Shown here piece after piece: positions 25,680 to 46,159 of a stretch of DNA of 64,000 nucleotides (position 1 is the stretch's first letter; each line of letters starts with the position of its first letter). A program made the position numbers and the translations under genes. Under the pieces are notes generated by a model. It had not been told where the DNA came from and searched no databases. It worked only from the letters and a program-made list of their open reading frames with translations. Origin of the DNA: an uncultured Erysipelotrichaceae bacterium (GTDB taxonomy: Bacteria > Bacillota_I > Bacilli_A > RF39 > UBA660); assembly GCA_902798815.1 (NCBI GenBank), contig CADBYH010000001.1:69554-133553 (forward strand), read 5' to 3'.

Positions 25680-25687
25680 ATACATTC

Positions 25688-26446: not shown

Positions 26447-26481
26447 AGTAGCTAATAGCTTAAAGAAGGGGTGTGATGTAT

Positions 26482-27051: not shown

Positions 27052-27056
27052 ATATA

Positions 27057-27085
27057 ATAGCAATGATTTCATTGCTATTTTTTTA
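27057..27085 (+). terminator. intrinsic terminator
   Basis: ATAGCAATGA / TCATTGCTAT hairpin plus T7. Confidence 0.7.
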
Positions 27086-28521: not shown

Positions 28522-28534
28522 GAATGGAGAATAT

Positions 28535-28669
28535 ATGGAAGAAAATAAAGAAAAAACAAATAAAGAAGAATATGAAGTTCTTAAAGAATTAAATCAAAAG
28601 ATTATACTTTTTAAAAAAGATAGTGAGGAAAAAGATAAAAAAGATAATAATCAAACTATAAGGAGGTAA
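28535..28669 (+). CDS. possible 44-aa charged micro-ORF
   Basis: Below the track cut-off. ATG lies 5 nt after GGAG. It fills the gap between two operon genes and its stop is 4 nt before the next ATG. Sequence: MEENKEKTNKEEYEVLKELNQKIILFKKDSEEKDKKDNNQTIRR. Confidence 0.3.
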   Translation: MEENKEKTNKEEYEVLKELNQKIILFKKDSEEKDKKDNNQTIRR

Positions 28670-28673
28670 AAAT

Positions 28674-31600
28674 ATGAATTCATCTGATAATACATTTTTT
28701 ATAAGTAATATAGAAGATATAATGGATAGTTTAGAAGATGTGATTACAGAAATAGATGATCAATATAATGAAGATGCAGGAGAATTATTTGATAATTGTA
28801 ATTTCTCAGAATTAATAAATGTTTTAAACAAATATCGATCAGACTTTGTTACGAATAATCACATATCCGTTGAATCATTAAAAATGACATATGCTATTAT
28901 GAATCCTGAAGATAAAAATAAAGTATATTCAGATGAAGAATATAATAATCTCCTAAAGAAAATCGCTGATGTTCACGGTGATAGATTATATGAAATAATG
29001 GGAGTATCATACTATAGTTTTGATATGAGTAATCTAGATGGTTTATTGAATTATGATGATCCAAAGTATGCTAGTACATATAGAAATGTTCTTGGAAGAA
29101 AATTGATAGAAATACCAATTGATGATTCTATTAATATTTTGAAAAATATTAATAAAAATGCCATTGATCAAGATTTTATTATAAAGTTTATTGAACAAAA
29201 AAATGAATTAAAATTTGGGGATAAATTAATTGCTTTAGCAAGCGTTTTACCAAAAGAAATGTTGGAAGATGGAAAAATAGGTAAAGAAATGATTAAAAAA
29301 ATAGACTCCATTTATTTTGGATCTGAAAAACTACTTGATTATATCCCTGAAACTGCATATGATAGCGAATTAGTTGAAATGATACTTAATAAAACAACAG
29401 ATAATGGTTTTTATGCAATATTTCAGAAAATACCTAAACAACTAAAGACTAGAGAAATATATGAAAGAGTATGTAGTAATAATTCATATTTTATTCATGA
29501 ACTTCCAAAAGAAAGTATTGATCCTAATATATCTGAAGAAGAATATAACCTATGGGTAAATAAACTGATTGTTGATGCTATTAATACAGATCCTGAATCA
29601 TCATATTCATTTTTTAGAGAATTAGATGATTCAAGAAAAACTAAAGAGATATGCACAATGGTTGCTAAAAACTTATCATTTAGTAGTGAATATGAATATG
29701 GTTATTTTCTCGAAAAAGTTCCTAATAATTGTAGAAGTAAAGAATTATATGAAATTATATTAGAAAAAACTACTGAAATAATAAGAAATATTCCGCAAGA
29801 ATCATTTGATCCAAATATCTCACAAGAAGAGTATGATAAATGGTATAAATCTTTAGTAATGAATAGTATCGATAAATCAAATTCTATGATGAATATCAGA
29901 AAACAAATTCCACCATCAAAAATGGATGAAAAGCTTTGGAATAGAATGCTAGATAAATGTATTGAGACTAAGGAAGATAAAAGATGTGCATCACTTGAAT
30001 ATATAGATTATGAAAATCTAACTCCTCAGATGATAGAAAGAGCAATAAATGAAATTGATGAAACACAAATATATTATATTCCGTGTATTGATAGAAAATT
30101 AGATGGATTACCAGAACAAGAAAAAGAAAAATATGCTAGATGGCAATCATCACTATCAGAAGAAGAAAAAAAATCTTACAGAGATTTATACGAAAGACTA
30201 TGGATTGATTTTGTGAATAAAAATTCACCAGCATCATTATATGAAAGAGTTCCACGTGAAGGAATAACTCACAATATGCATATGACATGTATTGATAAAG
30301 ATAACTTTTTAGCAATCAAATGTATGCCATTACCTGAAACAGAACAAGAAAAAGAAGAATATCAAAAATTACTTATATATGCTATAAGTAAAATAGAACC
30401 AATTAATTATAATAAAGAACACTCAGATCTTATAGAAGAAAGAGATATTCTTGAAAATATACCTCAAGAATTAATAAATGAAGATGTTCTAAGAGCAGCA
30501 ATAGAAAAAAGCAGTATATATTTATCATATGCTAATGTTGATTCGGAAAATTTTGAAGAATTATTAAATATCGGATATAAAGGAAAATTAGAATCATTAG
30601 GAAGAGATAAACTAACAAAAGAGGAAATAGAATTAATTCAGAGATTTGCACACAGTAATAGTGATTTATTTAAAACATTGAAATTAGAAATATTAGACCC
30701 AAGAATTGTAAGTACAATTGGAGAAGATAGTTTAGAAATAATTACAAGATATAAAGATGTACAAAATTCAGTATTGAAATTAGCAAATAATGAAGATGCA
30801 CTAGCAACATTTGGCTTTGTTTTAGAAAACTTAAAAGAAGATAGTCAATTCATTGAACCAACAATTGAAAAATTATCTCGATCAATATCATATCAAGGAG
30901 AAACAGGATATGGAAATACAGGTTCACAATTTTTAAAATCTGTAAATAAGAGATTAAAAAGAAAAGATGTCCCTGTTACAGACTACGAAAAAGTAATTAT
31001 ATCTCATTTAGCTTTAAATACAAGAGAAGGTAAAAAAATAAATAATTACGAAGATGTTTTAACATATGTAGATAGAAAAAATAGTGAATTAGAAACTATA
31101 GTTTCCAATCCAAATGCATCATTAATAGATGTAAAAAATGCATATTTAGAAAGAGTCATCGGAATGGATTATGAAACTGCAAAAAATCTTGTTAGTACTT
31201 ATGGTAATGATCCAGAAGAGCTTTTAAGAAAATATGATAATTTAGATCCTAATGCTTATCAAGAACTTGCTGAAAAAGAAGCACTTGAAATCATTATAAA
31301 ATTAAAATCTATAATAGAAACAAATGATATTAATGCTTTAAGAAGTGAATTTCAAAAATATGTTAGTGAAGAAAAAAGAGAAGATTCATACAAAAGATAT
31401 AAAACAGCTCCAAAAATCGATTCTACATTAAGAAGAGCTTATGGAAGAGATATTACAGAATCATTATCAAAAACAGAAGGCCAGTTAGAAGAAAAAGAAC
31501 TTGAATCAGGTGAAAAATATTATGTAAGACGTGTCTCAGGTGATTTTAATAGAATGGTAAGTTTATTAGGAGCTTACAGAAAATCAGGTGCTACAGAAGG

Positions 31601-32567
31601 AGACATGTATGACAGATGGAATACCAGTGAAATGTCAGGTAATCATGCTTTATGTTACAGTTTAATTAATCAATCAAATCCTGGAACAGCTATGATTGAT
31701 GGTAAAAAAGGTGTAATTATATCTGTAAATGGTTTCAGCCCTGAAGCAGTATCTGCTGCGGCACCTTACGATTTATGCTCAGATAATAGATTTAATACGG
31801 TTCATACCTGGAGAGACCAAAGGTTTTTTAGTGCCAGAAATATGCCTAATCAAACAAGAGGAATGTATTCTGAATATGATATAGAAATTAAAGATGTAAA
31901 CGCTCCTAAAGGTACTTATAGAAAGATACAACCAGCATCAATTATCTGTTTTGAAGAAATTGATGAGGATAGTATAAATGCATCAATTGAATTATCAAAG
32001 AAATTAGTATATCCAGTGCCAATAGAATTAATTGATAGAAGAGAACTTGCAAGAAATGAAATGATCCAAATACTTGCTGCATACAATGAATTTAAAAAAG
32101 GTGATAATTTAGATCCAGCATTACTTGAACAAATTATCACAAGATTTAATAATGTCAGAAATGCCCATAGATATTCAAATTTATCTGACGAATTATTAGG
32201 TGAAAAAGAAGAAGAAAATAAACAAGCACCATTTAATAAAGAACATTTAAATCAAATAATCAAAGAATGTCTTAAAGTAATAGAGCAAAAGATAAAATCC
32301 GGAAAAGTAGAAGAAGGACTTCAAGTTTTAGAACAATTAAAAACTATAATTGCAAAAGAAAGAGAAAAAGCATACCTTATGCCAACTATGCACGATAAAC
32401 AAAGATGGACATCGATTGATATGGAAATTGATTATGCAATAGACTCTATGATAAGAACATACTCGCAACCAGTAATAACAGAGCAAAAGGAATCTCAATC
32501 GATTGATGTAGTAAGAAATTTACAAGGTCAAAGTCTTAACTCAGTCGTATATGATATTAGTTATTAA
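28674..32567 (+). CDS. giant cytosolic repeat protein (DUF4116-like helical repeats + unassigned C-terminal globular domain)
   Basis: Strong SD AAGGAGG. 1297 aa with no signal peptide or TM. Repeats include LPKESIDPNISEEEYNLWVNKLIVDAI / IPQESFDPNISQEEYDKWYKSLVMNSI and ...IPKQLKTREIYERV... / ...VPNNCRSKELYEII.... The C-terminal ~300 aa are non-repetitive. Confidence 0.8.
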   Translation: MNSSDNTFFISNIEDIMDSLEDVITEIDDQYNEDAGELFDNCNFSELINVLNKYRSDFVTNNHISVESLKMTYAIMNPEDKNKVYSDEEYNNLLKKIADVHGDRLYEIMGVSYYSFDMSNLDGLLNYDDPKYASTYRNVLGRKLIEIPIDDSINILKNINKNAIDQDFIIKFIEQKNELKFGDKLIALASVLPKEMLEDGKIGKEMIKKIDSIYFGSEKLLDYIPETAYDSELVEMILNKTTDNGFYAIFQKIPKQLKTREIYERVCSNNSYFIHELPKESIDPNISEEEYNLWVNKLIVDAINTDPESSYSFFRELDDSRKTKEICTMVAKNLSFSSEYEYGYFLEKVPNNCRSKELYEIILEKTTEIIRNIPQESFDPNISQEEYDKWYKSLVMNSIDKSNSMMNIRKQIPPSKMDEKLWNRMLDKCIETKEDKRCASLEYIDYENLTPQMIERAINEIDETQIYYIPCIDRKLDGLPEQEKEKYARWQSSLSEEEKKSYRDLYERLWIDFVNKNSPASLYERVPREGITHNMHMTCIDKDNFLAIKCMPLPETEQEKEEYQKLLIYAISKIEPINYNKEHSDLIEERDILENIPQELINEDVLRAAIEKSSIYLSYANVDSENFEELLNIGYKGKLESLGRDKLTKEEIELIQRFAHSNSDLFKTLKLEILDPRIVSTIGEDSLEIITRYKDVQNSVLKLANNEDALATFGFVLENLKEDSQFIEPTIEKLSRSISYQGETGYGNTGSQFLKSVNKRLKRKDVPVTDYEKVIISHLALNTREGKKINNYEDVLTYVDRKNSELETIVSNPNASLIDVKNAYLERVIGMDYETAKNLVSTYGNDPEELLRKYDNLDPNAYQELAEKEALEIIIKLKSIIETNDINALRSEFQKYVSEEKREDSYKRYKTAPKIDSTLRRAYGRDITESLSKTEGQLEEKELESGEKYYVRRVSGDFNRMVSLLGAYRKSGATEGDMYDRWNTSEMSGNHALCYSLINQSNPGTAMIDGKKGVIISVNGFSPEAVSAAAPYDLCSDNRFNTVHTWRDQRFFSARNMPNQTRGMYSEYDIEIKDVNAPKGTYRKIQPASIICFEEIDEDSINASIELSKKLVYPVPIELIDRRELARNEMIQILAAYNEFKKGDNLDPALLEQIITRFNNVRNAHRYSNLSDELLGEKEEENKQAPFNKEHLNQIIKECLKVIEQKIKSGKVEEGLQVLEQLKTIIAKEREKAYLMPTMHDKQRWTSIDMEIDYAIDSMIRTYSQPVITEQKESQSIDVVRNLQGQSLNSVVYDISY

Positions 32568-32630
32568 GAATCACAAGTAATTCCAAAACAACTATCACCT
32601 GATGAGATTTTAGAAATTAGTGATTTATCA

Positions 32631-33617
32631 ATGGTAGAATCAGAAATAAGAGAAGTTCATGATGCAGGATTTTATCAAAATAAAACAGCATATGGAGAAG
32701 AACATATCGCAAGAGTAATATTATATAGTTCTAATATTGCTAAAATGGAAGGACTAGATGAAAGAACTCAACAATTACTAACAGAAGCAGCTAAATACTC
32801 ATCATGTGGTAGACAAACTGATTCAGTAGAAAGACATGAAAAATACAGTTCAACCTTGGCAGCCAAACAACTAAAAGAAAAATACTCAGATGGCGATATA
32901 AGACTAATCCAAGCAGCGATAGAACTACAAAATATTGGAATGTCAATGGGAAGACAAGAAGATAAAGATAGAATAATATCTGAAATATGTACAAAATATC
33001 AAATTCCTGAAAATCAAAGAGATACAGTTCTAAAAATGTCTAATTGTTTAAATGATGCAATAGAATTAGATAGATTAAGATTTGTAGATAAGGCGCAGGC
33101 AAATAAAGAAGAGAAATTTTCTTTATTCAGATTACAAACAGATTCATCAAAAAAGTTGATTCAAAGTAGTTGTTACATTCAAGAACAATTAGCAGAACAA
33201 GAACTTGAAGAAAGAAAAAATCAAGCAAACATTACTTATGATTCATCAACTAAAAGAGATATTATGGATAAATTTTTTACTGAAAAAATTATGGGAATGC
33301 CACATCGTACTCAAGAAGAAAGAATTACAGAATCTCCATTAGTTAGACTTGAGTATTTTAAAACTAAATACCCAGAACTAGTAGATGTTGAGACAAATTC
33401 TATACCGGTAAAACAAGAAACTTCGTCTAAAGAAAAAGAAATATCAGAAAAACAAGAAAAAAGAAGGCAACAATATGAACAAAGAAAAAAACAGTTAGGT
33501 TTGAATGATGAACCTGTTATAGCGCTTGATACACTATTTCATGAACAAGAAATCTTAGAGCAGCTTGGAATTACAGAAGAAATGATAGAAGAAGCATCTA
33601 TTGGATATAGAAGATAG
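32631..33617 (+). CDS. degenerate HD-domain-like protein, in frame with the upstream giant ORF
   Basis: EEHIARVILYSSNIAKMEGLDERTQQLLTEAAKYSSCGRQ follows the HD-domain pattern H...(gld)...LHDIGR, but with HD replaced by SS. No SD precedes the ATG. It is in the same reading frame as 28674..32567, separated only by the TAA at 32565-32567. Confidence 0.6.
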   Translation: MVESEIREVHDAGFYQNKTAYGEEHIARVILYSSNIAKMEGLDERTQQLLTEAAKYSSCGRQTDSVERHEKYSSTLAAKQLKEKYSDGDIRLIQAAIELQNIGMSMGRQEDKDRIISEICTKYQIPENQRDTVLKMSNCLNDAIELDRLRFVDKAQANKEEKFSLFRLQTDSSKKLIQSSCYIQEQLAEQELEERKNQANITYDSSTKRDIMDKFFTEKIMGMPHRTQEERITESPLVRLEYFKTKYPELVDVETNSIPVKQETSSKEKEISEKQEKRRQQYEQRKKQLGLNDEPVIALDTLFHEQEILEQLGITEEMIEEASIGYRR

Positions 33618-33626
33618 GAGGTAATT

Positions 33627-35159
33627 ATGGATAATACGACAAACGACAAAAAAGAAGAAATATCTCAAAGTCAGAATAATACAATAAAAGAAGAATTAAA
33701 AGAACCAGAAGAAAAAGTTATAGAAGTAGGTTCGAAAATAAAAGATGGACAGTATAAATGTCCAAATTGTGGGTCAAGTCAAATTGAACCAAATCCCAAA
33801 ACAGGTAAATTAAAATGTGCTTATTGTGCCTGTGAATTTGATGGAAAAAATATAGAAAATACAGTTGCAGATTTAACTAAATTAAAAGGTCGTGTCAGAG
33901 GAAGTGGAACATCAAATATTAAAGCAGATGCCAATGATGTTGTAACATTAAAATGTGGAGGTTGTGGTGCTGAAGTAGTAATTGATACCGCAAATGCTCC
34001 TCACGCAAGATGTCACTGGTGCAGAAGTATTCTTTCCATAAATTCTCAAATAGAAAATGGTGCTATTCCAGATGTAATTCTGCCTTTTAAAGAAAAAAAA
34101 GAAGAAGCTAGAGAAAAAATAAATGATTTTGTAAAAAAAAGAACATTCTTTGCTAATCCTAGATTTAAAAAAGAATTTACAACAGAAAATATAATGGGAG
34201 TATATTTTCCTTATTTACTTGTAGATGCAAATTGTCATGCTAATTTTAAAGGACAAGGAGAACATAAAACAAGAGAATATCGAGTTCCTGCTGGAGATGA
34301 TGATTGGGTTACTGTTTATGATGCTGATTTATATAACGTTGAAAGAGAATATGATATGGTTGTAAAAGGATTGTCCATAGAATCTAATTCAACTAGATTA
34401 GATAAAACATCTAATAGTCAAACAAATAATATTATTAATAGTATAATGCCTTTTGATACAGAAAACTGTATTCAATATCAATCTAACTATCTTGTAGGAT
34501 ATACCTCTGAAAGACGTGATGTAAATATAGACGATATTGAACCACAAGTTGCTAAACAACTAAAAGATATTGCAAGATTTTCATCTAAAAAAGAAACAGA
34601 ATTGTTTTATGATCGCGGTATAAGATGGGACTATCAAGATTTAAAAATAATAGGTACACAATGGTTAGCAGCATACTTACCAGTATGGTTATATAGTTAT
34701 CAAGAAGTAAAAGGAAATAAAAAAGTACTTCATTACGTTGCCGTAAATGCAAGAACTGGTGAAACTATGGGAAGTGTTCCAATTAATAAACCATTACTAT
34801 TTGGAATATCTGCCATAATAGAATTTTTCTGTACTATTTTAGCATTCATCTTGTTCTTTGTAACATCAACTGGTAGTGATGATGATGATAGTGTAGGTTT
34901 CTTCTTATTATTACTAGGAGGATTTATTTTCTATGGAGTAATGTATTTAAGATATCGTAATAGTGATGCAAGACATGCCTATGAAGATGAAACAGAAAAA
35001 GAAATTTATAATATAAAAAGAAAAGATGAATTTGTTAAAAAAGAAAAAGAATTGCGTAATAGTCAAATAAAAGGGATTAATGATACCGTAATCGAAGGAG
35101 ATGTAATTGATTCAACATCAAAATTAGGAAATATAATTAAGAAAAACATAAACAAATAA
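33627..35159 (+). CDS. double zinc-ribbon protein with C-terminal transmembrane hairpin
   Basis: SD TAGGAGG. Zinc-ribbon cysteine pairs CPNCGS...CAYCAC and CGGCGA...CHWCRS. Two C-terminal TM helices (LLFGISAIIEFFCTILAFILFFV and FFLLLLGGFIFYGVMYL). Confidence 0.7.
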   Translation: MDNTTNDKKEEISQSQNNTIKEELKEPEEKVIEVGSKIKDGQYKCPNCGSSQIEPNPKTGKLKCAYCACEFDGKNIENTVADLTKLKGRVRGSGTSNIKADANDVVTLKCGGCGAEVVIDTANAPHARCHWCRSILSINSQIENGAIPDVILPFKEKKEEAREKINDFVKKRTFFANPRFKKEFTTENIMGVYFPYLLVDANCHANFKGQGEHKTREYRVPAGDDDWVTVYDADLYNVEREYDMVVKGLSIESNSTRLDKTSNSQTNNIINSIMPFDTENCIQYQSNYLVGYTSERRDVNIDDIEPQVAKQLKDIARFSSKKETELFYDRGIRWDYQDLKIIGTQWLAAYLPVWLYSYQEVKGNKKVLHYVAVNARTGETMGSVPINKPLLFGISAIIEFFCTILAFILFFVTSTGSDDDDSVGFFLLLLGGFIFYGVMYLRYRNSDARHAYEDETEKEIYNIKRKDEFVKKEKELRNSQIKGINDTVIEGDVIDSTSKLGNIIKKNINK

Positions 35160-35180
35160 GTATAACTTATTTGTTTTTTT
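35151..35180 (+). terminator. intrinsic terminator ending the 27160-35159 operon
   Basis: AACAAATAAG / CTTATTTGTT hairpin plus a T-run. Confidence 0.7.
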
Positions 35181-35320
35181 ATTTGATGATTATCAAAAAA
35201 ACATACTTATATATGGTATATTATCAAATAAAGTGTTAAATAAGTGTAAAGTAAAGTGACTAACCAATTGAAAAACAAACGAATAAAGTGTATAATATGT
35301 CATTGATTAAGGGGGATATT

Positions 35321-36385
35321 ATGAAAATAAAAGAAAATAGCGCAGTGAAAAAAATAATAAAAATGCCAGTAGGTTATACTATACTAACTATCTCTGATAA
35401 TTATGATCTAAAAAGAATTGCTATAAAGGGAAGTATATCAAAAGGCAGAAGATACATATACATGTATGACAAAGATACTGATTTAGTTAATAGTATTGAT
35501 GCAGAAGTAAAAATATCAAATGAAAATGGATTAAAAATTGTTGCCTATGGTGATTATATAATTCATGATGCAGAATATGTACTATTAGATTGTAAAAAGA
35601 AAATTCTTAATGATAATAGAATGTTCAAATCAATTGAAGATAGAGTAAAAGTAGACGAACAATCAAAAAGCAATTTAGAAATAGAAAGAATTACAAAACA
35701 AAAAGACAAAGAAATTGCTGATCTACAGCAAAAATTAAAAGAAAGAGAAAATTACTACACAGTTGATAGATTAACTAGACTTAGTGATATTAAGAAAGAT
35801 TTAGTATTAGGAGAAGTAACTTGCTATTCATATAGTTCTGGTATGAGAGACAGGGGAAGATATTTTGGTGGATATCAAATGACATCAACATCTAATGTAA
35901 CTAAAAAAGTAAAAAATAATGGAATAAAATTTGTAATTGAAAAATTAGAAATTATTTCTGAATTATATAACTCTGATGCATTTTCTAATAATAGATTACA
36001 TACTTTATTAGAAAAAATAGAATCTTTAGAAACAAAAGCAAGAACAAAATATGATGAAGAGACTTTAAACAGTATTCAATCTATATATGGTTTAATAGCA
36101 GAAGAGTTAACAATAAGATTGATTAATTTGTGTAATCATATAAGAAATAATAATATTAAAACTGATGAATTAACTTATGAAGAAACAATATATAGATATG
36201 GAACAAAGTTCTATGATGATGAAAGTGAATATGAAGAAATAGAAAAAATAGATAATTATTTTGATAGCATCATAGAAGGAGCATGTACATTTATAGAAAG
36301 AATTACAAATCAAAACATAAAAGATGAATTACATTCAAGATTACATCAAGAAATAGAAAAACCAAAAGAAAAAAGAATTGGATAA
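35321..36385 (+). CDS. hypothetical coiled-coil protein
   Basis: ATG at 35321 follows SD AAGGGGGAT, so the track GTG at 35288 is likely too early. The central region is heptad-rich. No motif recognised. Confidence 0.65.
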   Translation: MKIKENSAVKKIIKMPVGYTILTISDNYDLKRIAIKGSISKGRRYIYMYDKDTDLVNSIDAEVKISNENGLKIVAYGDYIIHDAEYVLLDCKKKILNDNRMFKSIEDRVKVDEQSKSNLEIERITKQKDKEIADLQQKLKERENYYTVDRLTRLSDIKKDLVLGEVTCYSYSSGMRDRGRYFGGYQMTSTSNVTKKVKNNGIKFVIEKLEIISELYNSDAFSNNRLHTLLEKIESLETKARTKYDEETLNSIQSIYGLIAEELTIRLINLCNHIRNNNIKTDELTYEETIYRYGTKFYDDESEYEEIEKIDNYFDSIIEGACTFIERITNQNIKDELHSRLHQEIEKPKEKRIG

Positions 36386-36422: not shown

Positions 36423-36451
36423 TTAACAAAAACAGCATAATATGGTATAAT
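36423..36451 (+). promoter_or_regulatory. extended -10 promoter of riboswitch leader 2
   Basis: TTAACA - 17 nt (containing TGG) - TATAAT. The spacing from -10 to GGAGTAG is the same 16 nt as in copy 1. Confidence 0.55.
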
Positions 36452-36459
36452 TATATACG

Positions 36460-36579
36460 TTGAAATGGAGTAGTTCTCATTTATAAAATGATTTTTAATT
36501 CGTCAACACAAGAATCTTATTCTTCGGATTAAAAATAAATAACAAGACTTTCACATTAAATAATGTGGGAGTCTTTTTT
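36460..36579 (+). promoter_or_regulatory. yybP-ykoY (Mn2+)-type riboswitch-like leader with intrinsic terminator, copy 2
   Basis: P1 TTGAAAT abuts GGAGTAG (36467-73). P2 is CATT/AATG. P3.1 is ATTTTTAATTC/GGATTAAAAAT (11 bp), L3 is GTCAACAC opposite C, and P3.2 is AAGAAT/ATTCTT. CAAGA (36543-47) abuts P1' CTTTCA. The terminator GACTTTCACATT/AATGTGGGAGTC plus T6 overlaps P1'. Confidence 0.7.
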
Positions 36580-36610
36580 GTATACCACAAAAAAAGGGGG
36601 AATATATTTT

Positions 36611-36901
36611 ATGATAAGAGAAATTTGTACAATTGATTTTATTAAAGGAGTTAGATTTATATCTGCTATAGAGAATGGAACAATAAAATTATTTTCATTA
36701 GATGAAGGAATTTCACTTTATATTGAAGCTGATGAAAATACAAGAAACATTAAAAGTATAAGAATTAATGGAAAATACTTTGATGTGACTATGAAAAATA
36801 TTAATGCTTTAAATAATTTTTATAGTAAAAATGGATTAGGTACAGATATAACAATAACAGAACCTACAAATACATATATTGATAAACCATCAATTAAATA
36901 A
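36611..36901 (+). CDS. hypothetical small protein (96 aa), riboswitch-controlled
   Basis: ATG at 36611 follows SD AAGGGGGAA. The track start at 36563 lies inside the terminator hairpin and is rejected. Confidence 0.65.
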   Translation: MIREICTIDFIKGVRFISAIENGTIKLFSLDEGISLYIEADENTRNIKSIRINGKYFDVTMKNINALNNFYSKNGLGTDITITEPTNTYIDKPSIK

Positions 36902-36924: not shown

Positions 36925-36950
36925 GAATAATCAATTGATTATTCTTTTTT
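36925..36950 (+). terminator. intrinsic terminator
   Basis: Palindrome GAATAATCAA/TTGATTATTC followed by T6. Confidence 0.6.
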
Positions 36951-37035
36951 ATTTGTAAAATCAAGTAAAGAATATTTGTAAAACTTAAATATTTTCGTTA
37001 TAATAATTAATAGTGATAAATAGGAGTGATAGAAA

Positions 37036-38940
37036 ATGTCAGATAAATATGATGCAAAGTCGATTAAAATACTTGAAGGTTTAGATGCAGTAAGAAAAAG
37101 ACCTGGTATGTATATTGGATCAACTGATAAGAGAGGATTACATCATTTAGTATGGGAAATTGTAGATAATTCTGTTGATGAAGCTATTAATGGTTACGGA
37201 GACTATATTAAGATAATACTTCATTCTGATGGTTCTATAAGTGTTGAAGATCATGGACGTGGTGTACCAACTGGAATGCATGAATCTGGTAAATCAACTC
37301 CTGAAGTAATATTTACAATCCTTCATGCTGGAGGAAAATTTGAAAGCGATGGTTATAAAGTATCTGGAGGACTACATGGTGTGGGTTCAAGTGTTGTTAA
37401 TGCTTTATCTAAATGGATGGAAGTAACAATTAAAAGAGATAAAGAAGAATCATATATTAGATTTGAAAATGGAGGACATGTTGCAGTACCTCTTAAAAAA
37501 ATTGGAACAACTAATAAAACAGGAACAACCATTAGATTTATGCCAGATGATGAAATTTTTTCGACTACAAAATTCTCATATACAACTATTTGTGAGAGAA
37601 TGCAAGAATCTGCATATTTATTAAAAGGAATTACTATTGAGGTAGTAGATGAAGAAGATGAAAGAGATGCAAAATTCCATTATGAAAGAGGTATTGAAGA
37701 ATATGTAGAAGATTTAAACAAAAATAAATCAACATTACATAAAGTTCTAAGTTTTAATGGAATCAAAGATAAAATTGAAGTAGAAATATCAATGCAATAT
37801 ACAGATACTTATGAAGAAAAAATAGTAAGTTTCGTAAATAATGTTAAAACAATAGACGGAGGATCTCACGAAGTTGGATTTAAAACAGCCCTTACAAGAG
37901 TATTTAATGATTATGCTAAAAGTAATGGCTTTGTTAAAGGAAATGCAAAAGCATTTGAAGGAAGCGATGTTCGTGAAGGACTAACTGCTATTATTAGTTT
38001 AAAAATCCCAGAAGGAATTCTACAATTTGAAGGACAAACAAAAGGAAAATTAGGAACTCCTCAAGCAAAAAGCGCTGTAGATAATATTGTTTCAGAACAA
38101 TTAAGAGTTTATTTAGAAGAAAATAAAGCAATCGCAACGGAAATTATAAATAAAAGTTTAAAAAGTAAAATTGCAAGGGAAGCCGCAAGAAAAGCAAGAG
38201 AAGATGCAAGAAAAGGTACAAGTAGAAAAAAAGAAGAAAGGTCGCTTTCTGGTAAACTTGCACCTGCTCAAAGTAAGGATAAAACGAAAAAAGAATTATT
38301 TTTAGTCGAGGGTGATTCTGCAGGAGGTTCTGCAAAAGGTGGAAGAGATAGAAAATATCAAGCAATATTACCTTTAAGAGGAAAAGTATTAAATACAGAA
38401 AAAACAAAAGAAGAAGATATCCTTCGAAATGAAGAAATTAATACAATGATTTATACAATAGGAGCAGGATATGGTTCCACATTTGACTTAAATGATTGTG
38501 AGTATAGTAAAGTTATAATCATGTCAGATGCTGATGAAGATGGAGGACATATTCAATGTCTATTACTAACATTTTTCTATCGTTATATGAAACCATTAAT
38601 AGAAGATGGTAGACTATTTGTTGCACTTCCACCATTATTTAAAATTCAAAGTGGAAAAGAAATTCAGTATGCTTATACTGTAGAAGAAATGAAAGAATTA
38701 TCAAAAGGGAAAAAATGTGATATTCAAAGATATAAAGGTCTTGGTGAAATGAATGCAGATCAACTATGTGAAACAACTATGAAACCAGGATCAAGAACAT
38801 TAATAAGAGTAAATATTGAAGATGCCCAACTTGCAGAAAAACGTGTGTCTATTCTTATGGGAGATGAAGTTCCTCCTCGTAAAGAATGGATAGAAGAAAA
38901 TGTAGAATTTTCACTTGAAGATGATTACAAAATTGCATAA
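37036..38940 (+). CDS. parE: DNA topoisomerase IV subunit B
   Basis: Type IIA ATPase/Toprim motifs: LEGLDAVRKRPGMYIGS, HHLVWEIVDNSVDEA, LVEGDSAGGS, PLRGKVLN, IMSDADEDGGHI. Called ParE because the partner gene has ParC-type features. Confidence 0.75.
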   Translation: MSDKYDAKSIKILEGLDAVRKRPGMYIGSTDKRGLHHLVWEIVDNSVDEAINGYGDYIKIILHSDGSISVEDHGRGVPTGMHESGKSTPEVIFTILHAGGKFESDGYKVSGGLHGVGSSVVNALSKWMEVTIKRDKEESYIRFENGGHVAVPLKKIGTTNKTGTTIRFMPDDEIFSTTKFSYTTICERMQESAYLLKGITIEVVDEEDERDAKFHYERGIEEYVEDLNKNKSTLHKVLSFNGIKDKIEVEISMQYTDTYEEKIVSFVNNVKTIDGGSHEVGFKTALTRVFNDYAKSNGFVKGNAKAFEGSDVREGLTAIISLKIPEGILQFEGQTKGKLGTPQAKSAVDNIVSEQLRVYLEENKAIATEIINKSLKSKIAREAARKAREDARKGTSRKKEERSLSGKLAPAQSKDKTKKELFLVEGDSAGGSAKGGRDRKYQAILPLRGKVLNTEKTKEEDILRNEEINTMIYTIGAGYGSTFDLNDCEYSKVIIMSDADEDGGHIQCLLLTFFYRYMKPLIEDGRLFVALPPLFKIQSGKEIQYAYTVEEMKELSKGKKCDIQRYKGLGEMNADQLCETTMKPGSRTLIRVNIEDAQLAEKRVSILMGDEVPPRKEWIEENVEFSLEDDYKIA

Positions 38941-38964
38941 TTATAAATAGAAAGAGATGGTAAA

Positions 38965-41529
38965 ATGCCAAGAAAGAAAACTGAAACAGAAGAAGTAATT
39001 GAGAAGATATTTGACTATACTTTAGAAGATCTTATGGGAGAAAGATTTGGAAGTTATTCTAAATATATTATTCAAGATCGTGCTATACCAGATGCCAGAG
39101 ATGGTCTAAAACCAGTTCAAAGACGTATTCTATATTCAATGCATAAAGAACATAATACCTATGATAAAGGATATAGAAAGTCTGCAAAAACTGTTGGAGA
39201 TGTTATAGGTAATTACCATCCACATGGTGATACATCAATTTATGATGCGATGGTTAGAATGTCTCAAAGTTGGAAGACAAGAATTCCATATATTGATATG
39301 CATGGTAATAACGGATCTATTGATGGAGATTCTCCAGCAGCTTATCGTTATACAGAAGCAAGACTATCTAAGATAGCAAACGAAATGCTTAGGGATATCG
39401 ATAAGGATACTGTAGAGTTTGCTCCAAACTTTGATGATACTACTATAGAACCAACTGTTTTACCAGCAAGATTTCCAGCACTTCTTGTATATGGAGCACA
39501 AGGAATATCTGCAGGTTATGCCACAAATATTCCACCACATAATTTAAATGAAATAGTAAATGCCACAATTCATAGAATTGATTATCCAAACTCTCAACTA
39601 GATACCCTAATGAAATATGTAAAAGGTCCAGATTTTCCGACAGGAGGAATAGTTGAAGGAATTGAAGGAATAAAAGATGCATATAAAACAGGTAGAGGAA
39701 GAATAATTGTAAAAAGTAGATATGAAATAGTAAAAGATAAATCTACAACCCAAATAGTAATAACAGAAATACCATTTGAAGTTAATAAAGCCCAGATGGT
39801 TAAAAAAATAGATGATATTAGAATAGATAAAAAAGTAGATGGGATATTAGAAGTAAGAGATGAATCTGCTCAAGATGTAAGAATTGTAATTGATCTAAAG
39901 AAAAACGCTAATACAGAACTAATTATAAATTACTTATTAAAAAATACAGATATGCAGATAAGTTATAACTTTAACATGGTCTCAATTGTAAATAGAAGAC
40001 CAAAACTACTAGGATTAGAACAAGCATTAGATGCCTTTATTGCCCATCAAAAAGAAGTAGTAATAAGAAGAACAACATTTGATTTAAATCACGCTAAAGC
40101 AAGATATCATATCCTTGAAGGTTTAATTAAATGTATTTCTATCTTAGATGAAGTAATTAGAGTAATAAGAGCATCTAAAAATAAAGCAGACGCTAAAGAT
40201 AACTTAGTAAAAGAATTTGCTTTTACTATAGAACAAGCAGAAGCAATAGTAACATTACAATTATATAGACTAACAAATACTGATGTAGTTGCCTTAGAAG
40301 AAGAAATGAAAGATTTAGAGAAAAAAATTAGTATTTGGGAACAAATTTTAAATAATGAAGAAGCTCTAAAACATGTAATGAAAAGAGAACTACAAAATAT
40401 TAATAAAGAATATGAAACTCCAAGATTAACTGATATAAAAGAAGAAATAACAGAGATAAAAATAGATGAAGCTGCTATGATTCCAAAAGAAGATGTTGTT
40501 GTTTTAGTAACAAAAGATGGATATATTAAAAGAACATCATATAGAAGTTATTCGGCATCAGCAGAATCAGACCTAACTTTAAAAGAAAACGATTATATAA
40601 TTGGTTTATATGAAATGAATACAACCGATACAATTCTTCTATTCACTAATGGAGGAAACTATCTTCATATTCCTGTACATATTATTCCTGATTTAAAATG
40701 GAAAGATATGCCTAAACATGTAAGCAATGTTATTGAAATACCAGGAGAAGAAAATATTATAAGCGCAATTCCTGCTTATGATTTCTCAAGTGATAAAGAT
40801 ATTATAATTGCATCTAAGAATAGTATGATAAAAAGAACAAAACTAAAAGAATTTAAATTACAAAGATATACAAAAGCAAGTAGTTGTATGAAATTAAAAG
40901 AAGATGATGAAGTAATCTCTGTAATAAGAGAAGATTATGATACTATCTTTATGACAACAAATTCAGGATATGGATTAAGTTTCAAAACATCTGATATTCC
41001 AGAAGTAGGTGTAAAAGCATCAGGAGTAAAAGGAATGAAATTAAAAGATGATTATATAGTTTCAGTAAATAACTTCTCATATACAACTCATGAGTATATT
41101 TCAATAATCACAACAAAAGGTACTGGAAAAAGAGTTAGATTATCAGAATTTGATTTATCTACAAGAACAAGAAGAGGAGTTCAAGTAATAAGAGAAGTAA
41201 AATCAAATCCATATGTAATTTTAAAAACATTTATAAGTGACTCTAGAAATTATATTGGTTTAAAAAACGGTGATATAACTACTATAAAGTCAACAGAATT
41301 ATCAATTAATGATAGATATAGTACAGGAACATCAATATCTAAAAAAGAATTAAATGATGCCTTTATAGTCGCAACACTAACAAAACCAACAGAAAAACAA
41401 GAAGAACTAATAGAAGAATTAACTAAAGAAGAACCAAAAGAAGAAATAAAAAAAATTCCAAAGAAAGAACAAATTTCTTTAGAAGAAATAGACGATAGAT
41501 TAATGACAATAGATGACTTCTTAAATTAG
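38965..41529 (+). CDS. parC: DNA topoisomerase IV subunit A
   Basis: The N-terminus LEDLMGERFGSYSKYIIQDRAIPDARDGLKPVQRRILYSM is the ParC-type pattern; GyrA has ...[27 protein letters not shown]. Catalytic AAYRYTEARL is present. I saw no GyrA-box (QRRGGKG) in the C-terminal domain. Confidence 0.75.
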   Translation: MPRKKTETEEVIEKIFDYTLEDLMGERFGSYSKYIIQDRAIPDARDGLKPVQRRILYSMHKEHNTYDKGYRKSAKTVGDVIGNYHPHGDTSIYDAMVRMSQSWKTRIPYIDMHGNNGSIDGDSPAAYRYTEARLSKIANEMLRDIDKDTVEFAPNFDDTTIEPTVLPARFPALLVYGAQGISAGYATNIPPHNLNEIVNATIHRIDYPNSQLDTLMKYVKGPDFPTGGIVEGIEGIKDAYKTGRGRIIVKSRYEIVKDKSTTQIVITEIPFEVNKAQMVKKIDDIRIDKKVDGILEVRDESAQDVRIVIDLKKNANTELIINYLLKNTDMQISYNFNMVSIVNRRPKLLGLEQALDAFIAHQKEVVIRRTTFDLNHAKARYHILEGLIKCISILDEVIRVIRASKNKADAKDNLVKEFAFTIEQAEAIVTLQLYRLTNTDVVALEEEMKDLEKKISIWEQILNNEEALKHVMKRELQNINKEYETPRLTDIKEEITEIKIDEAAMIPKEDVVVLVTKDGYIKRTSYRSYSASAESDLTLKENDYIIGLYEMNTTDTILLFTNGGNYLHIPVHIIPDLKWKDMPKHVSNVIEIPGEENIISAIPAYDFSSDKDIIIASKNSMIKRTKLKEFKLQRYTKASSCMKLKEDDEVISVIREDYDTIFMTTNSGYGLSFKTSDIPEVGVKASGVKGMKLKDDYIVSVNNFSYTTHEYISIITTKGTGKRVRLSEFDLSTRTRRGVQVIREVKSNPYVILKTFISDSRNYIGLKNGDITTIKSTELSINDRYSTGTSISKKELNDAFIVATLTKPTEKQEELIEELTKEEPKEEIKKIPKKEQISLEEIDDRLMTIDDFLN

Positions 41530-41587: not shown

Positions 41588-41869
41588 ATGAGTAAACAAA
41601 ATTTTATTTCTTATGCAAGAAATCATCCAGAACTAGCAAATTATGTTTTGAATGGTAAAGTTACTTGGCAGCAATTATATGAGATATATGAAATATATGG
41701 AGAAAACAACAATATATTAGAAAATTATACTAAAAATAATATTGATTTAAACTCTTTTAAAGAAGTTTTTAATGTCATAAAGAAAGTAGATTTAGAAAAT
41801 GTTCAAAATAGTATTAATAATATCCAAAAAACAATAGGTTTAATTCAAACTATAGGTACTAAAAAATGA
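41588..41869 (+). CDS. YlbD-like small protein
   Basis: The ...HPELANYVLNGKVTWQQLYEIYEIYGE... pattern resembles B. subtilis YlbD (recalled from memory). The position upstream of ylbE/ylbF/rsmD-like genes fits ylb synteny. Confidence 0.45.
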   Translation: MSKQNFISYARNHPELANYVLNGKVTWQQLYEIYEIYGENNNILENYTKNNIDLNSFKEVFNVIKKVDLENVQNSINNIQKTIGLIQTIGTKK

Positions 41870-42087
41870 CAAAAGAAATATTAAAGTATATAAGAACTCA
41901 TGAATATATTTATAATTTTTTAAGAGATGATTCTTCTCATTATATATATTTATATAAAGATAATAATTATATTAAGGTAATAAAAAGACTTGCCAAAGAA
42001 AAATATAAATTAAGATATATTGATAAACTTCAATCAATAGAAAATAAAATAAATCAAATAAATACAATTATTGAAGTATTTAAATAA
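41866..42087 (+). CDS. YlbE-like small protein
   Basis: The start overlaps the previous stop (ATGA). The N-terminal EILKYIRTHEYIYNFLRDDSSHY pattern is YlbE-like (recalled from memory). Confidence 0.4.
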   Translation: MTKEILKYIRTHEYIYNFLRDDSSHYIYLYKDNNYIKVIKRLAKEKYKLRYIDKLQSIENKINQINTIIEVFK

Positions 42088-42106
42088 AATGTGATAGAAT
42101 TAACTC

Positions 42107-42391
42107 ATGGAAGAGTTAATTTTATTAGTAGACAATTTAATTAAAAGTATAGATGACACAACTCTTGTATCTGAAATCAAAGAGTTAAATAAAGAATTAT
42201 TAAAAGATCAAGAATTAATGAAGTTATTAGAAGAGTATAAATATAACAAAAGTGATAGTTTAAAAGAAAAAATAATTTCAAATGACTTATTCTATAAATA
42301 CAAAGAAAAAGAAACAGATTTAAATATCTTAATAATGAGTATTAATCAAAGACTTAAAAGTATAAGTAGTAAGGATGGATGTCTAAAATGA
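42107..42391 (+). CDS. YlbF/YmcA-family helical protein
   Basis: A 94-aa helical protein of the form ...LIKSIDDTTLVSEIKELNKELLKDQELMKLLEEY.... Sits directly upstream of rsmD, as ylbF does in Bacillus. Confidence 0.45.
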   Translation: MEELILLVDNLIKSIDDTTLVSEIKELNKELLKDQELMKLLEEYKYNKSDSLKEKIISNDLFYKYKEKETDLNILIMSINQRLKSISSKDGCLK

Positions 42392-42933
42392 AAGTAATAA
42401 GTGGTATATATAAAGGAAGAAAAATAGATGGCTTTTCTATAGACGGAACACGTCCAACTATGGATAGAGTAAAAGAAAGTTTATTTGGTACAATTCAAAA
42501 TTATTTAGATAATTCGGTATGTCTAGATTTATTTTCAGGTAGTGGTAATCTTGCTATTGAAGCATTATCTGAAGGAGCAAAATATGCTTACCTAGTTGAT
42601 TATAATAAAAAAGCATATCAAACAATTACTAATAATATTAACAACATTGGTATTAATAACTGTAAAGTATTATTAATGGATTATAAAAAGGCACTAAGTT
42701 ATTTTAAAGACAATAATATAGAATTTGATATTATTTTTTTAGATCCGCCATATAAAACTAATTATATTGAAGAATCAATTAAATTAATAAGTAAGTACAA
42801 GTTACTTAAAGATAATGGAATAATTGTATGTGAAAGTGATAATATTGATAAAATAATCTATAATGAAGAATATAAATCAATTAAAGATAAAAAATATGGA
42901 GATAAATATATAGTTTTACTAAAAAAAATATGA
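42379..42933 (+). CDS. rsmD: 16S rRNA (guanine966-N2)-methyltransferase RsmD
   Basis: (M)KVISGIYKGRKI start, SAM-binding motif LDLFSGSGNLAIEALSEGA, and the catalytic DPPY motif (FLDPPYK). The alternative start at 42388 (ATGA overlap) is equally plausible. Confidence 0.75.
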   Translation: MSKMKVISGIYKGRKIDGFSIDGTRPTMDRVKESLFGTIQNYLDNSVCLDLFSGSGNLAIEALSEGAKYAYLVDYNKKAYQTITNNINNIGINNCKVLLMDYKKALSYFKDNNIEFDIIFLDPPYKTNYIEESIKLISKYKLLKDNGIIVCESDNIDKIIYNEEYKSIKDKKYGDKYIVLLKKI

Positions 42934-42960
42934 TAATATATATAGTAGGAGAAATATATT

Positions 42961-44439
42961 ATGAATAATAAGGGATTTGCAGTAACAACTTTAATATATG
43001 GTTTGGCAGTAATTGGAATATTACTTGTAAATATTGTTATGGCAACATTATCTACATCTAGAAAAAGTGTTAAAGACATGGCAAAAGTAGTAGAAGAAGA
43101 ATTAATTAATGCTAATCGTGCAAGTGTTGTTTTTGATGGTAATACAGGTGGTGTGGTAAATTATACAGTTCCAGAAGGACAAGGTGGTTTATATAGAATA
43201 GAAGCATGGCAACCACAAGCATCATCTGGATCAAATGCATGTAATAGAGAAAGAGGAGCCTATGAGGTAGGGTTTATTCTTTTAAAAGAAAACGAAAACC
43301 TTTATGTTAGTTCTGGAAAATGTGGAGAAGATACAATAGTATCATTACAGAATCCTATTGTTGATAATAAAATAATAATGAAACCTAAAAATACTGGTTA
43401 CGTATTAAAAGGATATACAGCAGCTGAAAATTTAGGTAGTGATGATAGAATTTGGGATTATATAACATTTAATAGTAAAAGATACTATTTTGTTAATGCA
43501 AGACATCAACCAGAAGTTAAAAGTGGAGAAGGGAAAGTTATTATAGAAAAAATCTATTCAACAACAAGCGATTCTCCATTTCAAGATTTAAGGTCACCAA
43601 AATGGAAAAATATTTCCGGCAAAACAGTAATACCATCAATGACTAATTCTGCTGCTTCATGTTCCTTTTATTATTCAAGAGATGGAGTAGTATTCAAAAA
43701 AAATATTTATACACATAGAAGTACAATTCAAGTAATGAATTATGATGCAATTGACGATGTATCTATAATTTGTAACCCTACAGATGATGGAAAAGGTAGA
43801 TTGCAGGCTACAATTGGAGTAGCATCAAATAATATTGTTTATAGTGATGTCACATTTAAGAAAGATCAAAAGATAAAAATACAATTATCAGCATATCAAC
43901 AAGATACAATGCAGCAACCTCCATCACATGGAAACTACTATATAATTCCATATAGTAATCAAGCAACAGCTATAACAGCAAATGATGCAAACAATACAGG
44001 AACTGCAATTTCAAATAATTTTATAAATGGTTCGGCTAGACAAAAATGGGCAATTGATTTAATTAATACACCAACAGATACAACTTATCCAAATATTACA
44101 AATAGTTCAGGAAAAAATGAATATCGTATTGTTGAACTAAATAGTTATAGAGCATTAGATATATTACATGATGAAAATAGAAATGGTAATGAAATATCAG
44201 CAAAATCAGCGTTTAATACATATGCTAAAAATACTCCACAAATATGGAATATAATTCCTAATGGAGATGGAACATATAAAATCGTTGCTATAGGAACACC
44301 AACAGATGTAAATGGTGCAGAACATTCTGGTTGCTTAAAAACGACAGGAACAACAACAACAATAGGAATGTGTAAAGAAGAATATGATGAAAATACAAGG
44401 TATATTTTATATCCTGTAGACTTCAGTACAACAAGATAA
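42961..44439 (+). CDS. pilin-leader protein with glycine-rich-domain-like module and C-terminal ricin-type beta-trefoil lectin
   Basis: The N-terminus MNNKGFAVTTLIYGLAVIGILLV is prepilin-like (G-F, but Thr instead of Glu at +5). The middle region YTVPEGQGGLYRIEAWQP...LYVSSGKCGED resembles Gly_rich domains. The C-terminus has QxW repeats (RQKWAI, PQIWNI) in a three-lobed trefoil pattern. Confidence 0.7.
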   Translation: MNNKGFAVTTLIYGLAVIGILLVNIVMATLSTSRKSVKDMAKVVEEELINANRASVVFDGNTGGVVNYTVPEGQGGLYRIEAWQPQASSGSNACNRERGAYEVGFILLKENENLYVSSGKCGEDTIVSLQNPIVDNKIIMKPKNTGYVLKGYTAAENLGSDDRIWDYITFNSKRYYFVNARHQPEVKSGEGKVIIEKIYSTTSDSPFQDLRSPKWKNISGKTVIPSMTNSAASCSFYYSRDGVVFKKNIYTHRSTIQVMNYDAIDDVSIICNPTDDGKGRLQATIGVASNNIVYSDVTFKKDQKIKIQLSAYQQDTMQQPPSHGNYYIIPYSNQATAITANDANNTGTAISNNFINGSARQKWAIDLINTPTDTTYPNITNSSGKNEYRIVELNSYRALDILHDENRNGNEISAKSAFNTYAKNTPQIWNIIPNGDGTYKIVAIGTPTDVNGAEHSGCLKTTGTTTTIGMCKEEYDENTRYILYPVDFSTTR

Positions 44440-44480
44440 AATAATAAGAGTAGTAAATAATTTTACTACTTTTTATTTTT

Positions 44481-44507
44481 TTAGCACTTTTTGTTGACAA
44501 GTGCTAA
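44481..44507 (+). promoter_or_regulatory. CIRCE operator 1 (HrcA binding site)
   Basis: TTAGCACTT-N9-AAGTGCTAA, compared with the consensus TTAGCACTC-N9-GAGTGCTAA. Confidence 0.85.
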
Positions 44508-44522
44508 GAGTAGGAGTATATT
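44494..44522 (+). promoter_or_regulatory. hrcA operon promoter
   Basis: TTGACA (inside the CIRCE-1 spacer) - 17 nt - TATATT. Confidence 0.6.
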
Positions 44523-44526
44523 ATTA

Positions 44527-44553
44527 TTAGCACTAAGATTTTATAAGTGCTAG
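44527..44553 (+). promoter_or_regulatory. CIRCE operator 2
   Basis: TTAGCACTA-N9-AAGTGCTAG, located between the -10 element and the SD. Confidence 0.85.
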
Positions 44554-44565
44554 GAGGTTGATGTT

Positions 44566-45555: not shown

Positions 45556-45561
45556 GTTTGT

Positions 45562-46143: not shown

Positions 46144-46159
46144 AAAGGAGAGATAAATT

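Follow-up and report, generated by a model that had tools for sequence, protein, structure and literature searches.

A P4-less yybP-ykoY (Mn2+) riboswitch-like leader upstream of an orphan gene in an uncultured Erysipelotrichaceae bacterium

The window analysed here, a stretch of 64,000 nucleotides (nt) from an uncultured Erysipelotrichaceae bacterium (assembly GCA_902798815.1, contig CADBYH010000001.1), carries on its + strand two related leaders, copy 1 (25651-25828) and copy 2 (36423-36610), the second of which is the main subject of this work. Copy 2 is probably a yybP-ykoY (Mn2+) riboswitch that switches transcription on, in the three-way-junction form where an A-rich joiner replaces helix P4. 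Its sequence elements, its fold, its homology to the class, the class-wide covariation of its helices and the overlap between P1 and the terminator were directly observed. A first-pass annotation made from the DNA letters alone had proposed a riboswitch-like leader of this family, and the scores of a subclass model, the transporter genes of the relatives and the key residues agree with that proposal. Rather than a new kind of RNA, we have here a known Mn2+ riboswitch family in its P4-less form, with a standard antitermination platform; the new points are that the curated model misses it, that the genes controlled are orphans, as they are for related leaders of the lineage, that several copies exist, and that an invariant base is altered in this strain.

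Architecture of the copy 2 leader

From promoter to start codon, copy 2 is composed of the following elements:

36423-36451, + strand: sigma-70-type promoter, with -35 TTAACA (36423-36428), a 17-nt spacer and extended -10 TGgTATAAT (36443-36451)
36461-36466, + strand: 5' strand UGAAAU of the switch helix P1.1, forming five pairs with 36549-36553
36467-36472, + strand: 5' side of L1, GGAGUA (from sequence; correspondence to Lactococcus lactis from PMC6649816)
36473-36476, + strand: 5' strand of P1.2, GUUC, pairing with A36541-C36543
36477-36491, + strand: P2 hairpin UCAUU-UAUAA-AAUGA; P2 covaries among the relatives
36492-36501, + strand: 5' strand of P3.1 (minimum-free-energy fold), with closing pair C36501-G36526
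36502-36509, + strand: 5' side of L3, GUCAACAC (from sequence; correspondence to L. lactis from PMC6649816)
36510-36524, + strand: P3.2 hairpin AAGAAU-CUU-AUUCUU (fold and covariance model R1)
36525-36536, + strand: 3' side of L3 (the single C36525), then the 3' strand of P3.1, GGAUUAAAAAU (fold and model R1)
36537-36543, + strand: A-rich joiner AAAU (part of AUAAAU) in the place of P4, then the 3' strand of P1.2, AAC
36544-36553, + strand: 3' side of L1, AAGA (invariant AGA at 36545-36547), C36548 and the 3' strand of P1.1, UUUCA, all within the 5' arm of the terminator
36544-36579, + strand: intrinsic terminator with a 14-base-pair (bp) stem (36544-36557 / 36562-36575), loop AAAU and T-run 36574-36579 (terminator scan)
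36596-36613, + strand: ribosome-binding site (RBS) GGGGG (36596-36600) and start codon ATG (36611-36613)

The promoter, an 11/12 match with the TG extension, ranks among the top three promoter-like sites in 12.5 kb, and transcription would start near 36458, ~7 nt past the extended -10. In the aptamer, L1 consists of GGAGUAG (36467-36473) and AGA (36545-36547), while in L3 the pair C36501-G36526 is followed by G36502, U36503, C36504 and A36505, with the single C36525 on the 3' side. The residues found to be critical by mutagenesis or structure (PMC6649816) are all present in copy 2:

36467-36469, + strand: G36467-G36468-A36469, corresponding to L. lactis L1 G8-G9-A10
36504-36505, + strand: C36504-A36505, corresponding to L. 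lactis L3 C40-A41, the Mn2+ ligands
36501 and 36526, + strand: C36501-G36526, corresponding to the C-G pair above L3 that receives the A-minor contact
36545-36547, + strand: A36545-G36546-A36547, corresponding to the 3' L1 AGA

By this correspondence C36501-G36526 would serve as the A-minor receptor. The gap between P3.1 and P1.2 measures ~4 nt (36537-36540), and the four-way junction with P4 is absent. The joiner reads AAUAAAU in copy 2 and UAUAAAG in copy 1, the clostridial consensus being UUAAAG; its UAAA core is present, with an inexact U-N-AAA register.

Two positions of the aptamer are mismatched in the window strain: U36466 lies opposite C36548 in P1.1, next to L1, where the relatives have G-C, and C36476 lies opposite U36540, the fourth P1.2 pair, which is C-G in the sister strain L003. 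The earlier statement that every helix still pairs is correct for the helices that it named, and fails at these two sites.

The terminator arms GACTTTCACATT/AATGTGGGAGTC (36546-36557 / 36562-36573) are followed by six T residues, and the terminator is present in the minimum-free-energy fold of copy 2 (-28.9 kcal/mol, z = -4.0). As had been claimed, it overlaps the 3' strand of P1, since 36548-36553 fall within its 5' arm (36544-36557); this arm holds the 3' side of L1, C36548 and the 3' strand of P1.1, and aptamer and terminator are therefore mutually exclusive. The region does not appear to be translated, as no open reading frame (ORF) of at least 20 amino acids (aa) covers the aptamer on the + strand. 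The start at 36563 given by the ORF track sits in the 3' arm of the terminator, and the true gene start is the ATG at 36611, preceded by the RBS, both as first proposed.

Relatives, covariance model and covariation

A scan of a genome collection with one narrow pattern of the shared elements returned at least 119 loci in species-level genomes of Clostridia, Erysipelotrichales and gut Alphaproteobacteria (metagenome-assembled genomes), all of which, by eye, follow a common P4-less plan with a terminator. An RBS and a same-strand gene directly follow the leader in all relatives. Among the loci listed, the first downstream gene encodes mostly an MntP-like protein (~188 aa), a P-type ATPase (~880 aa) or a CaCA exchanger (~310 aa), as called from length and N-terminal sequence, a set which is the classical Mn riboswitch regulon.

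For the analysis of covariation, 110 of these aptamers were aligned with MAFFT (alignment A2, window sequences excluded, not structure-fitted), and the structure was supplied by hand from a pair-compatibility matrix, comprising P1.1, P1.2, P2, P3.1 and P3.2 with 27 pairs in total. Standard pairs occupied 90.3% of the cells, as compared to 31-49% when the partners were slid by 1-3 columns. Double changes occurred in 20 of the 27 pairs and in 402 cells, against 138 ± 15 in shuffles, and none of the 500 shuffles matched the covariation observed. Gaps in the hairpins of the raw MAFFT alignment kept RNAalifold from recovering any helix other than P1 and P1.2. In a model-fitted alignment of 12 AT-rich relatives, pairing reached 94.2% (38-50% when slid) and 18 of the 27 pairs showed double changes. 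A structure-aware alignment of homologs had been named beforehand as the test that could refute a functional fold, and its strong covariation favours a conserved one. The covariation between the two window copies, originally offered as direct evidence, was too strong a claim: two sequences give no statistical covariation, and the support comes from the homologs.

The covariance model R1, built from the 110-sequence alignment without the window sequences and run with filters off, scored copy 1 at 67.4 bits (E 3e-15) and copy 2 at 42.0 bits (E 1.3e-8). A third match in the window (47462-47548, 19.6 bits) lies within a dnaK-like ORF and was taken as chance. Among the matches listed, the nearest relatives of the leaders were L073, L104 and L106; two of the leaders most closely related to copy 1, those in L106 and L073, stand first in operons that include a CDF-like or a CaCA transporter.

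Comparison of the two copies

The second leader of the window has the same order of parts:

25651-25828, + strand: copy 1 leader, with promoter 25651-25679, aptamer 25689-25775 and terminator 25768-25799 (67.4 bits with R1)

All helices of copy 1 are intact, and its L3 is of the clostridial type. A composite pattern of the leader matched exactly two sites in the window, namely the two copies, and was never matched in 100 shuffles. The sequence GGAGTAGTTC begins at 36467 in copy 2 and at 25695 in copy 1; its further near-matches (2555, 22637, 44971 and 46260) all lie inside ORFs and were taken as chance. The sequence AACAAGACTTT occupies 36542-36552 in copy 2 and 25764-25774 in copy 1, and a 13-nt stretch of the copy 2 promoter, AATATGGTATAAT, is identical in copy 1.

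Every sequence element listed in the first-pass annotation was found in its place, and the common promoter type and spacing that it described were borne out by equal promoter scores and by 15 intervening bases after the -10 in both copies. P2 (CAUU/AAUG in copy 2, CAUC/GGUG in copy 1) pairs in each copy, as do P3.1, which is 11 bp long in copy 2 and 8 bp in copy 1, and P3.2 (AAGAAU/AUUCUU and GAUA/UAUC, respectively), and the exchange of an A-U for a G-C pair in P1 was also seen. That every helix differs between the copies was overstated: P3.1 and P3.2 do differ, whereas P1.2 (GUU/AAC) is identical and P2 shares two of its four pairs. The CAACAC loop element occurs in both, at 36504-36509 and 25725-25730, in a different structural register. 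With the closing C-G pair as reference, the CA that contacts the metal falls at C36504-A36505 of copy 2 and at C25728-A25729 of copy 1, so that the element appears to be offset by three bases, copy 1 probably being read as C25725 | AA | C25728-A25729.

Proposed switching mechanism

By analogy with characterised members of the family, the ligand would most likely be Mn2+ and its binding would favour transcription of the gene. The nascent RNA would fold into P1.1, L1, P1.2, P2 and P3.1, L3, P3.2, and a divalent cation, most likely Mn2+, would bridge L1 (GGAGUA / AAGA) and L3 (GUCAACAC / C), with docking of the two helical stacks. Docking would keep P1.1 (36461-36465 with 36549-36553) closed, and closed P1.1 would deny 36544-36553 to the 5' arm of the terminator, allowing the polymerase to read into a monocistronic gene of 96 aa. 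In the absence of the ion the far stabler terminator (36544-36575 plus T6) would form, and transcription would stop near 36580, leaving an RNA of ~120 nt. The terminator fold was computed at -28.9 kcal/mol in copy 2 and -29.1 in copy 1, and the aptamer fold with P1 enforced at -10.6 and -16.1 kcal/mol, respectively. The layout of copy 2 is the usual one for a kinetically controlled ON switch, and the blocking of a terminator by a ligand-stabilised P1 has been shown experimentally for L. lactis and Streptococcus pneumoniae (PMC6649816).

Points against the assignment and alternative explanations

Several observations weigh against copy 2 being a working Mn2+ riboswitch. At gathering thresholds no Rfam family matched anywhere in the 64-kb window, and the scan with RF00080 (Manganese riboswitch, gathering score 45 bits), which had been proposed as a check, was negative for both copies, neither of them being listed even at E ≤ 10. 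The fold of copy 2 without the terminator is no stabler than that of shuffled sequences (z = -0.96), its helices being very AT-rich. The downstream gene is a soluble-looking orphan, so that the gene context gives Mn2+ no support, and neither copy is associated with a cation-efflux gene. Moreover, position 36466 is G in 110 of 110 genome relatives, in 27 of 27 metagenome relatives and in the sister strains L003 and L004, and is U in the window. U36466 removes the G-C pair that closes L1, at a cost of ~3 kcal/mol in the nearest-neighbour model. Of the four differences that separate the window from L003 over 561 nt, three (36466, 36515 and 36540) fall within the ~100-nt aptamer, unlike what strong purifying selection would leave, and the ORF is identical.

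The negative result with Rfam can be traced to the model. None of the 18 P4-less relatives tested (L025, L028, L071 and 15 others) reached the gathering score of RF00080, which in E-value mode gave 23.2, 26.7 and 35.3 bits to relatives, even directly upstream of mntP. As relatives upstream of mntP also fail, the RF00080 test is insensitive for the P4-less architecture, a class which is related to RF00080 yet systematically missed by it. The consequence is a practical one, since the curated Rfam Mn2+ model misses the entire P4-less form, found in at least 119 species-level genomes, and standard pipelines leave such leaders unannotated. The best Rfam match for both copies was RF02617 (SSRC10, "Streptococcus sRNA 10"), with 34.4 bits for copy 2 (E 7e-5, window 36483-36580) and 31.9 bits for copy 1 (E 2e-4, window 25706-25798), both below its gathering score of 56. 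SSRC10 lies directly upstream of a "putative calcium transporter" gene of Streptococcus pyogenes (PMC3675131). This position, together with the work of Martin et al. (2019; PMC6649816), suggests that termination at the streptococcal P4-less Mn riboswitch gives rise to SSRC10, and, so read, the RF02617 matches of both copies point to the Mn riboswitch family. RF02617 itself appears to represent the 3' two-thirds and the terminator of the streptococcal mgtA Mn2+ riboswitch, i.e., a cis-regulatory leader filed as a small RNA (sRNA).

The filing of SSRC10 raises the question of whether copy 2 could be an independent sRNA gene, whose ~120-nt terminated transcript acts in trans. Promoter and terminator do delimit a discrete short transcript, and SSRC10 was seen on Northern blots as a stable RNA of ~113 nt (PMC3675131); nevertheless, a terminated RNA is expected from any transcriptional riboswitch, the RBS and same-strand gene always follow directly in all relatives, and target complementarity is not known, so that we regard this explanation as very improbable. 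A less remote, still quite unlikely explanation is that the same fold answers to another signal, either a different divalent cation such as Ca2+ or a general cation or environmental cue for non-transporter genes. The P4-less aptamer of S. pneumoniae binds Ca2+ tighter than Mn2+ (PMC6649816), CaCA exchangers lie downstream of some relatives, and AT-rich leaders precede 10 gene families, nine without a Pfam match and one of PfkB kinases. Mn2+ remains, however, the functional activator in S. pneumoniae (PMC6649816), the L1 and L3 residues that confer Mn2+ selectivity in solved structures are conserved, and operons with CDF and CaCA transporters occur among the closest relatives.

The allele of this strain bears on a further alternative, which we consider unlikely, though less so than the preceding two, namely that copy 2 is a decaying or retuned Mn2+ riboswitch in which U36466 and U36540 disable or weaken P1, the leader acting as a constitutive attenuator with the 96-aa gene silenced or kept low. 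At 36466/36540 the haplotype is G/G in L003 and G/U in L004, while the window, L001 and L002 share U/U. Since G is invariant in 137 independent relatives and in the sister strains, and the search patterns did not force a G before GGAGUAG, the U allele is derived, and the L1-closing G-C pair typical of the P4-less subclass is absent from the window, L001 and L002. Two of the three aptamer differences with respect to L003 break base pairs; the sister-strain alleles score 55.9 (L003) and 51.5 bits (L004) with R1, so that the drop from L003 to the window amounts to 55.9 to 42.0 bits, and the P1-enforced fold is ~3 kcal/mol weaker than with G. Judging from the sequences, U36466 and U36540, each of which breaks a pair of the sister strains, should make P1 less stable and tilt the switch toward termination. 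On the other hand, the metal-contacting residues are intact, five P1 pairs are left, many riboswitches tolerate a mismatch at a helix end, and the occurrence of the U allele in three independent assemblies (window, L001 and L002) marks it as a population variant and not an error. A Mn2+ riboswitch, whose allele in this strain may be retuned or crippled, is preferred, and the G/U polymorphism at an otherwise invariant position offers a natural experiment on the role of the L1-closing pair in switching.

Regulated genes

Downstream of copy 2 the following features were found:

36611-36901, + strand: orphan gene of 96 aa, without Pfam, NCBIfam, PHROG or PADLOC match
36925-36950, + strand: AT-rich palindrome GAATAATCAATTGATTATTC followed by T6 (from sequence), with fewer than three G-C pairs and uncalled by the terminator scan
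36976-37004: promoter-like site belonging to the gyrB-like gene (promoter scan)

The hairpin at 36925-36950 is likely the terminator of the 96-aa gene; as it is followed by T6 and the gyrB-like gene has its own promoter, the unit looks monocistronic. Five near-identical versions of the 96-aa product are recorded, and a search of 5.8 billion cluster representatives returned only its own cluster plus one chimeric sequence; its AlphaFold model was unusable (predicted local distance difference test, pLDDT, 43.8). A relation to Asp23 through the sequence P0002, which agrees with the 96-aa protein over the first 39 aa and then matches Pfam Asp23, was rejected as an assembly chimera: the contig (L146, ENA ERZ28436101, 660 nt) has 1.18x coverage, and its bases 1-145 match window 36582-36727 at 96.6%, after which G+C passes from 25% to ~44%.

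Copy 1 precedes two paralogous orphan genes of 205 and 192 aa (25829-27051), followed by a bidirectional-looking terminator (27056-27079). For the 205-aa protein, the model computed with AlphaFold (pLDDT 78.6) had no fold match in the PDB with E ≤ 0.001. A profile search placed this protein in a family of ~200 aa with 81 clusters, and in the eight members scanned no Pfam domain was found, except for a marginal one (E 0.0099) in a longer member of 343 aa. A gene of the family directly follows a leader in L140 (61.2 bits with R1), and in L141 and L142 it lies behind an aptamer without P2 and with P4. In L137/L138 (5042-6624) a P4-less leader is followed by an SPFH/Band_7 gene and then by a homolog of the 205-aa protein, and in L106 (2487-4916) by an SPFH/Band_7 gene and by genes for a small membrane protein and for a product that is CDF-like by sequence only. 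The repeated pairing of gene and leader, seen in L140, L141 and L137, counts in favour of the riboswitch reading. Three further members of the family, in L139, L143 and L144, lack a leader of this kind.

Phage or defence origin was considered and rejected: no PHROG, PADLOC or NCBIfam family matched the orphan block and its leaders, and a viral scan for this type of leader found nothing. A looser viral scan gave 13 loci, among which L009 and the identical L010/L017 look like real P4-less aptamers, while the other 10 look like coding or chance matches.

To our knowledge, Mn2+ riboswitches are known almost only before exporters. The orphan soluble proteins, lipoproteins, SPFH protein and ~200-aa family without known domain that follow these leaders, in the window and in related AT-rich genomes, may be regarded as candidates for new functions in metal homeostasis.

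Lineage pattern and genome surroundings

A metagenome scan for leaders of the copy 2 type yielded 27 loci, ~19 of them on contigs with 23-30% G+C, and it is the AT-rich loci that precede the 10 gene families mentioned above. Two leaders lie ~1.3 kb apart in L148 (815-903 and 2149-2237) and again in L159 (1166-1254 and 2501-2594); in L148 one precedes a PfkB-family kinase gene and the other a member of an uncharacterised ~340-aa family. yybP-ykoY-like aptamers without P2 and with a P4 hairpin occur in L141 (1149-1270), L142, L148, L150, L159, L163, L168 and L171. These P2-less AT-rich aptamers have an alx-like junction and the same GGAGUAGUUC / GAACAAGAC ends and terminator, and R1 matched that of L141 weakly (19.4 bits).

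Multiple leaders before non-transporter genes seem typical of the AT-rich lineage, and nothing else in these results is as unusual. One may tentatively ask whether yybP-ykoY aptamers have spread in uncultured, very AT-rich (23-30% G+C) gut and rumen Bacillota as a promoter-riboswitch cassette, with three junction architectures, at times two or more leaders within a few kb, and many non-transporter genes without assigned function, the recurrent ~200-aa family among them, a possibility that we hold doubtful. Should Mn2+ sensing be retained in the cassette leaders, they would mark out a Mn2+-responsive regulon not seen before, with new proteins for Mn handling; should it be lost, the aptamer would have been repurposed for another signal. 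A literature search for a link between yybP-ykoY and SPFH or Erysipelotrichia genes brought up nothing relevant.

Immediately upstream of copy 1, window 21338-25625 looks like a phosphonate biosynthesis cluster, with a nucleotidyltransferase, a fusion of phosphoenolpyruvate phosphomutase and cytidylyltransferase, an Fe-dependent alcohol dehydrogenase and a thiamine pyrophosphate enzyme (possibly a phosphonopyruvate decarboxylase). Between the leaders (27160-36385) lie five genes of 453, 1297, 328, 510 and 365 aa, without significant Pfam, NCBIfam, PHROG or PADLOC family; the 453-aa protein has a weak PHP/histidinol-phosphatase-like N-terminus and a C-terminal membrane anchor, and the 510-aa protein weak zinc-ribbon matches. 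PHP-domain genes also adjoin the ~200-aa family in L137 and L139. Downstream of the 96-aa gene, 37036-41529 and 41588-48013 hold GyrB-like (634 aa), GyrA-like (854 aa), YlbD, YlbF-like, rsmD, hrcA, grpE and dnaK-like genes. These housekeeping genes, together with a G+C content of ~25%, indicate that the DNA belongs to the chromosome of an AT-rich member of the Bacillota rather than to a mobile element. Gene content and the nearest relatives of the leaders (L073, L104 and L106) likewise suggest a member of the Bacillota, perhaps with ties to Erysipelotrichales.

Comparison with known riboswitches

The closest characterised system is the mgtA leader of S. pneumoniae, which Martin et al. (2019; PMC6649816) described as a yybP-ykoY riboswitch with a three-way junction in which UNAAA replaces P4, a terminator follows the aptamer and Mn2+ activates. 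The Streptococcus mgtA riboswitch and the window copies alike have a short A-rich joiner instead of P4, L1 with GGAGUAG / AGA, L3 with C|GUCAA...C opposite a single base, the C-G pair above L3, an intrinsic terminator that overlaps the 3' side of L1/P1, and the logic of an ON switch. They differ in the joiner, AUAAA(U/G) in the window and not UNAAA, and in P1.2, GUU/AAC and not GC/GC; moreover, the helices of copy 2 are AT-rich, and the gene regulated is a 96-aa orphan and not a P-type ATPase.

The clostridial and gut P4-less aptamers (L018-L136) share the architecture, GGAGUAGUU, UAAA-N-AACAAGAC and the terminator overlap. Their L3 register is mostly "GUC|AACAUAC", like that of copy 1, and they lie upstream of mntP, P-type ATPase and CaCA genes, whereas copy 2 has the register "C|GUCAACAC" (the "C|GUCAAYAC" type), as found in L. 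lactis and Streptococcus. In these relatives a G-C pair closes L1 and metal transporters follow, while copy 2 has U36466 and an orphan gene.

L. lactis yoaB and the canonical form of RF00080 share with the window copies the metal-site residues of L1 and L3, the P1.1 switch helix and Mn2+-dependent antitermination, but possess P4 and therefore a four-way junction, which the window copies lack. The likeness to L. lactis yoaB is drawn in part from its published structure. The alx riboswitch of Escherichia coli, of the same family, has a three-way junction without P2 (PMC12153347) and is a translational, pH-coupled switch; in the window copies it is P4 that is missing, and P2 is retained. The yybP-ykoY family thus already includes both P4-less (Streptococcus) and P2-less (alx) members.

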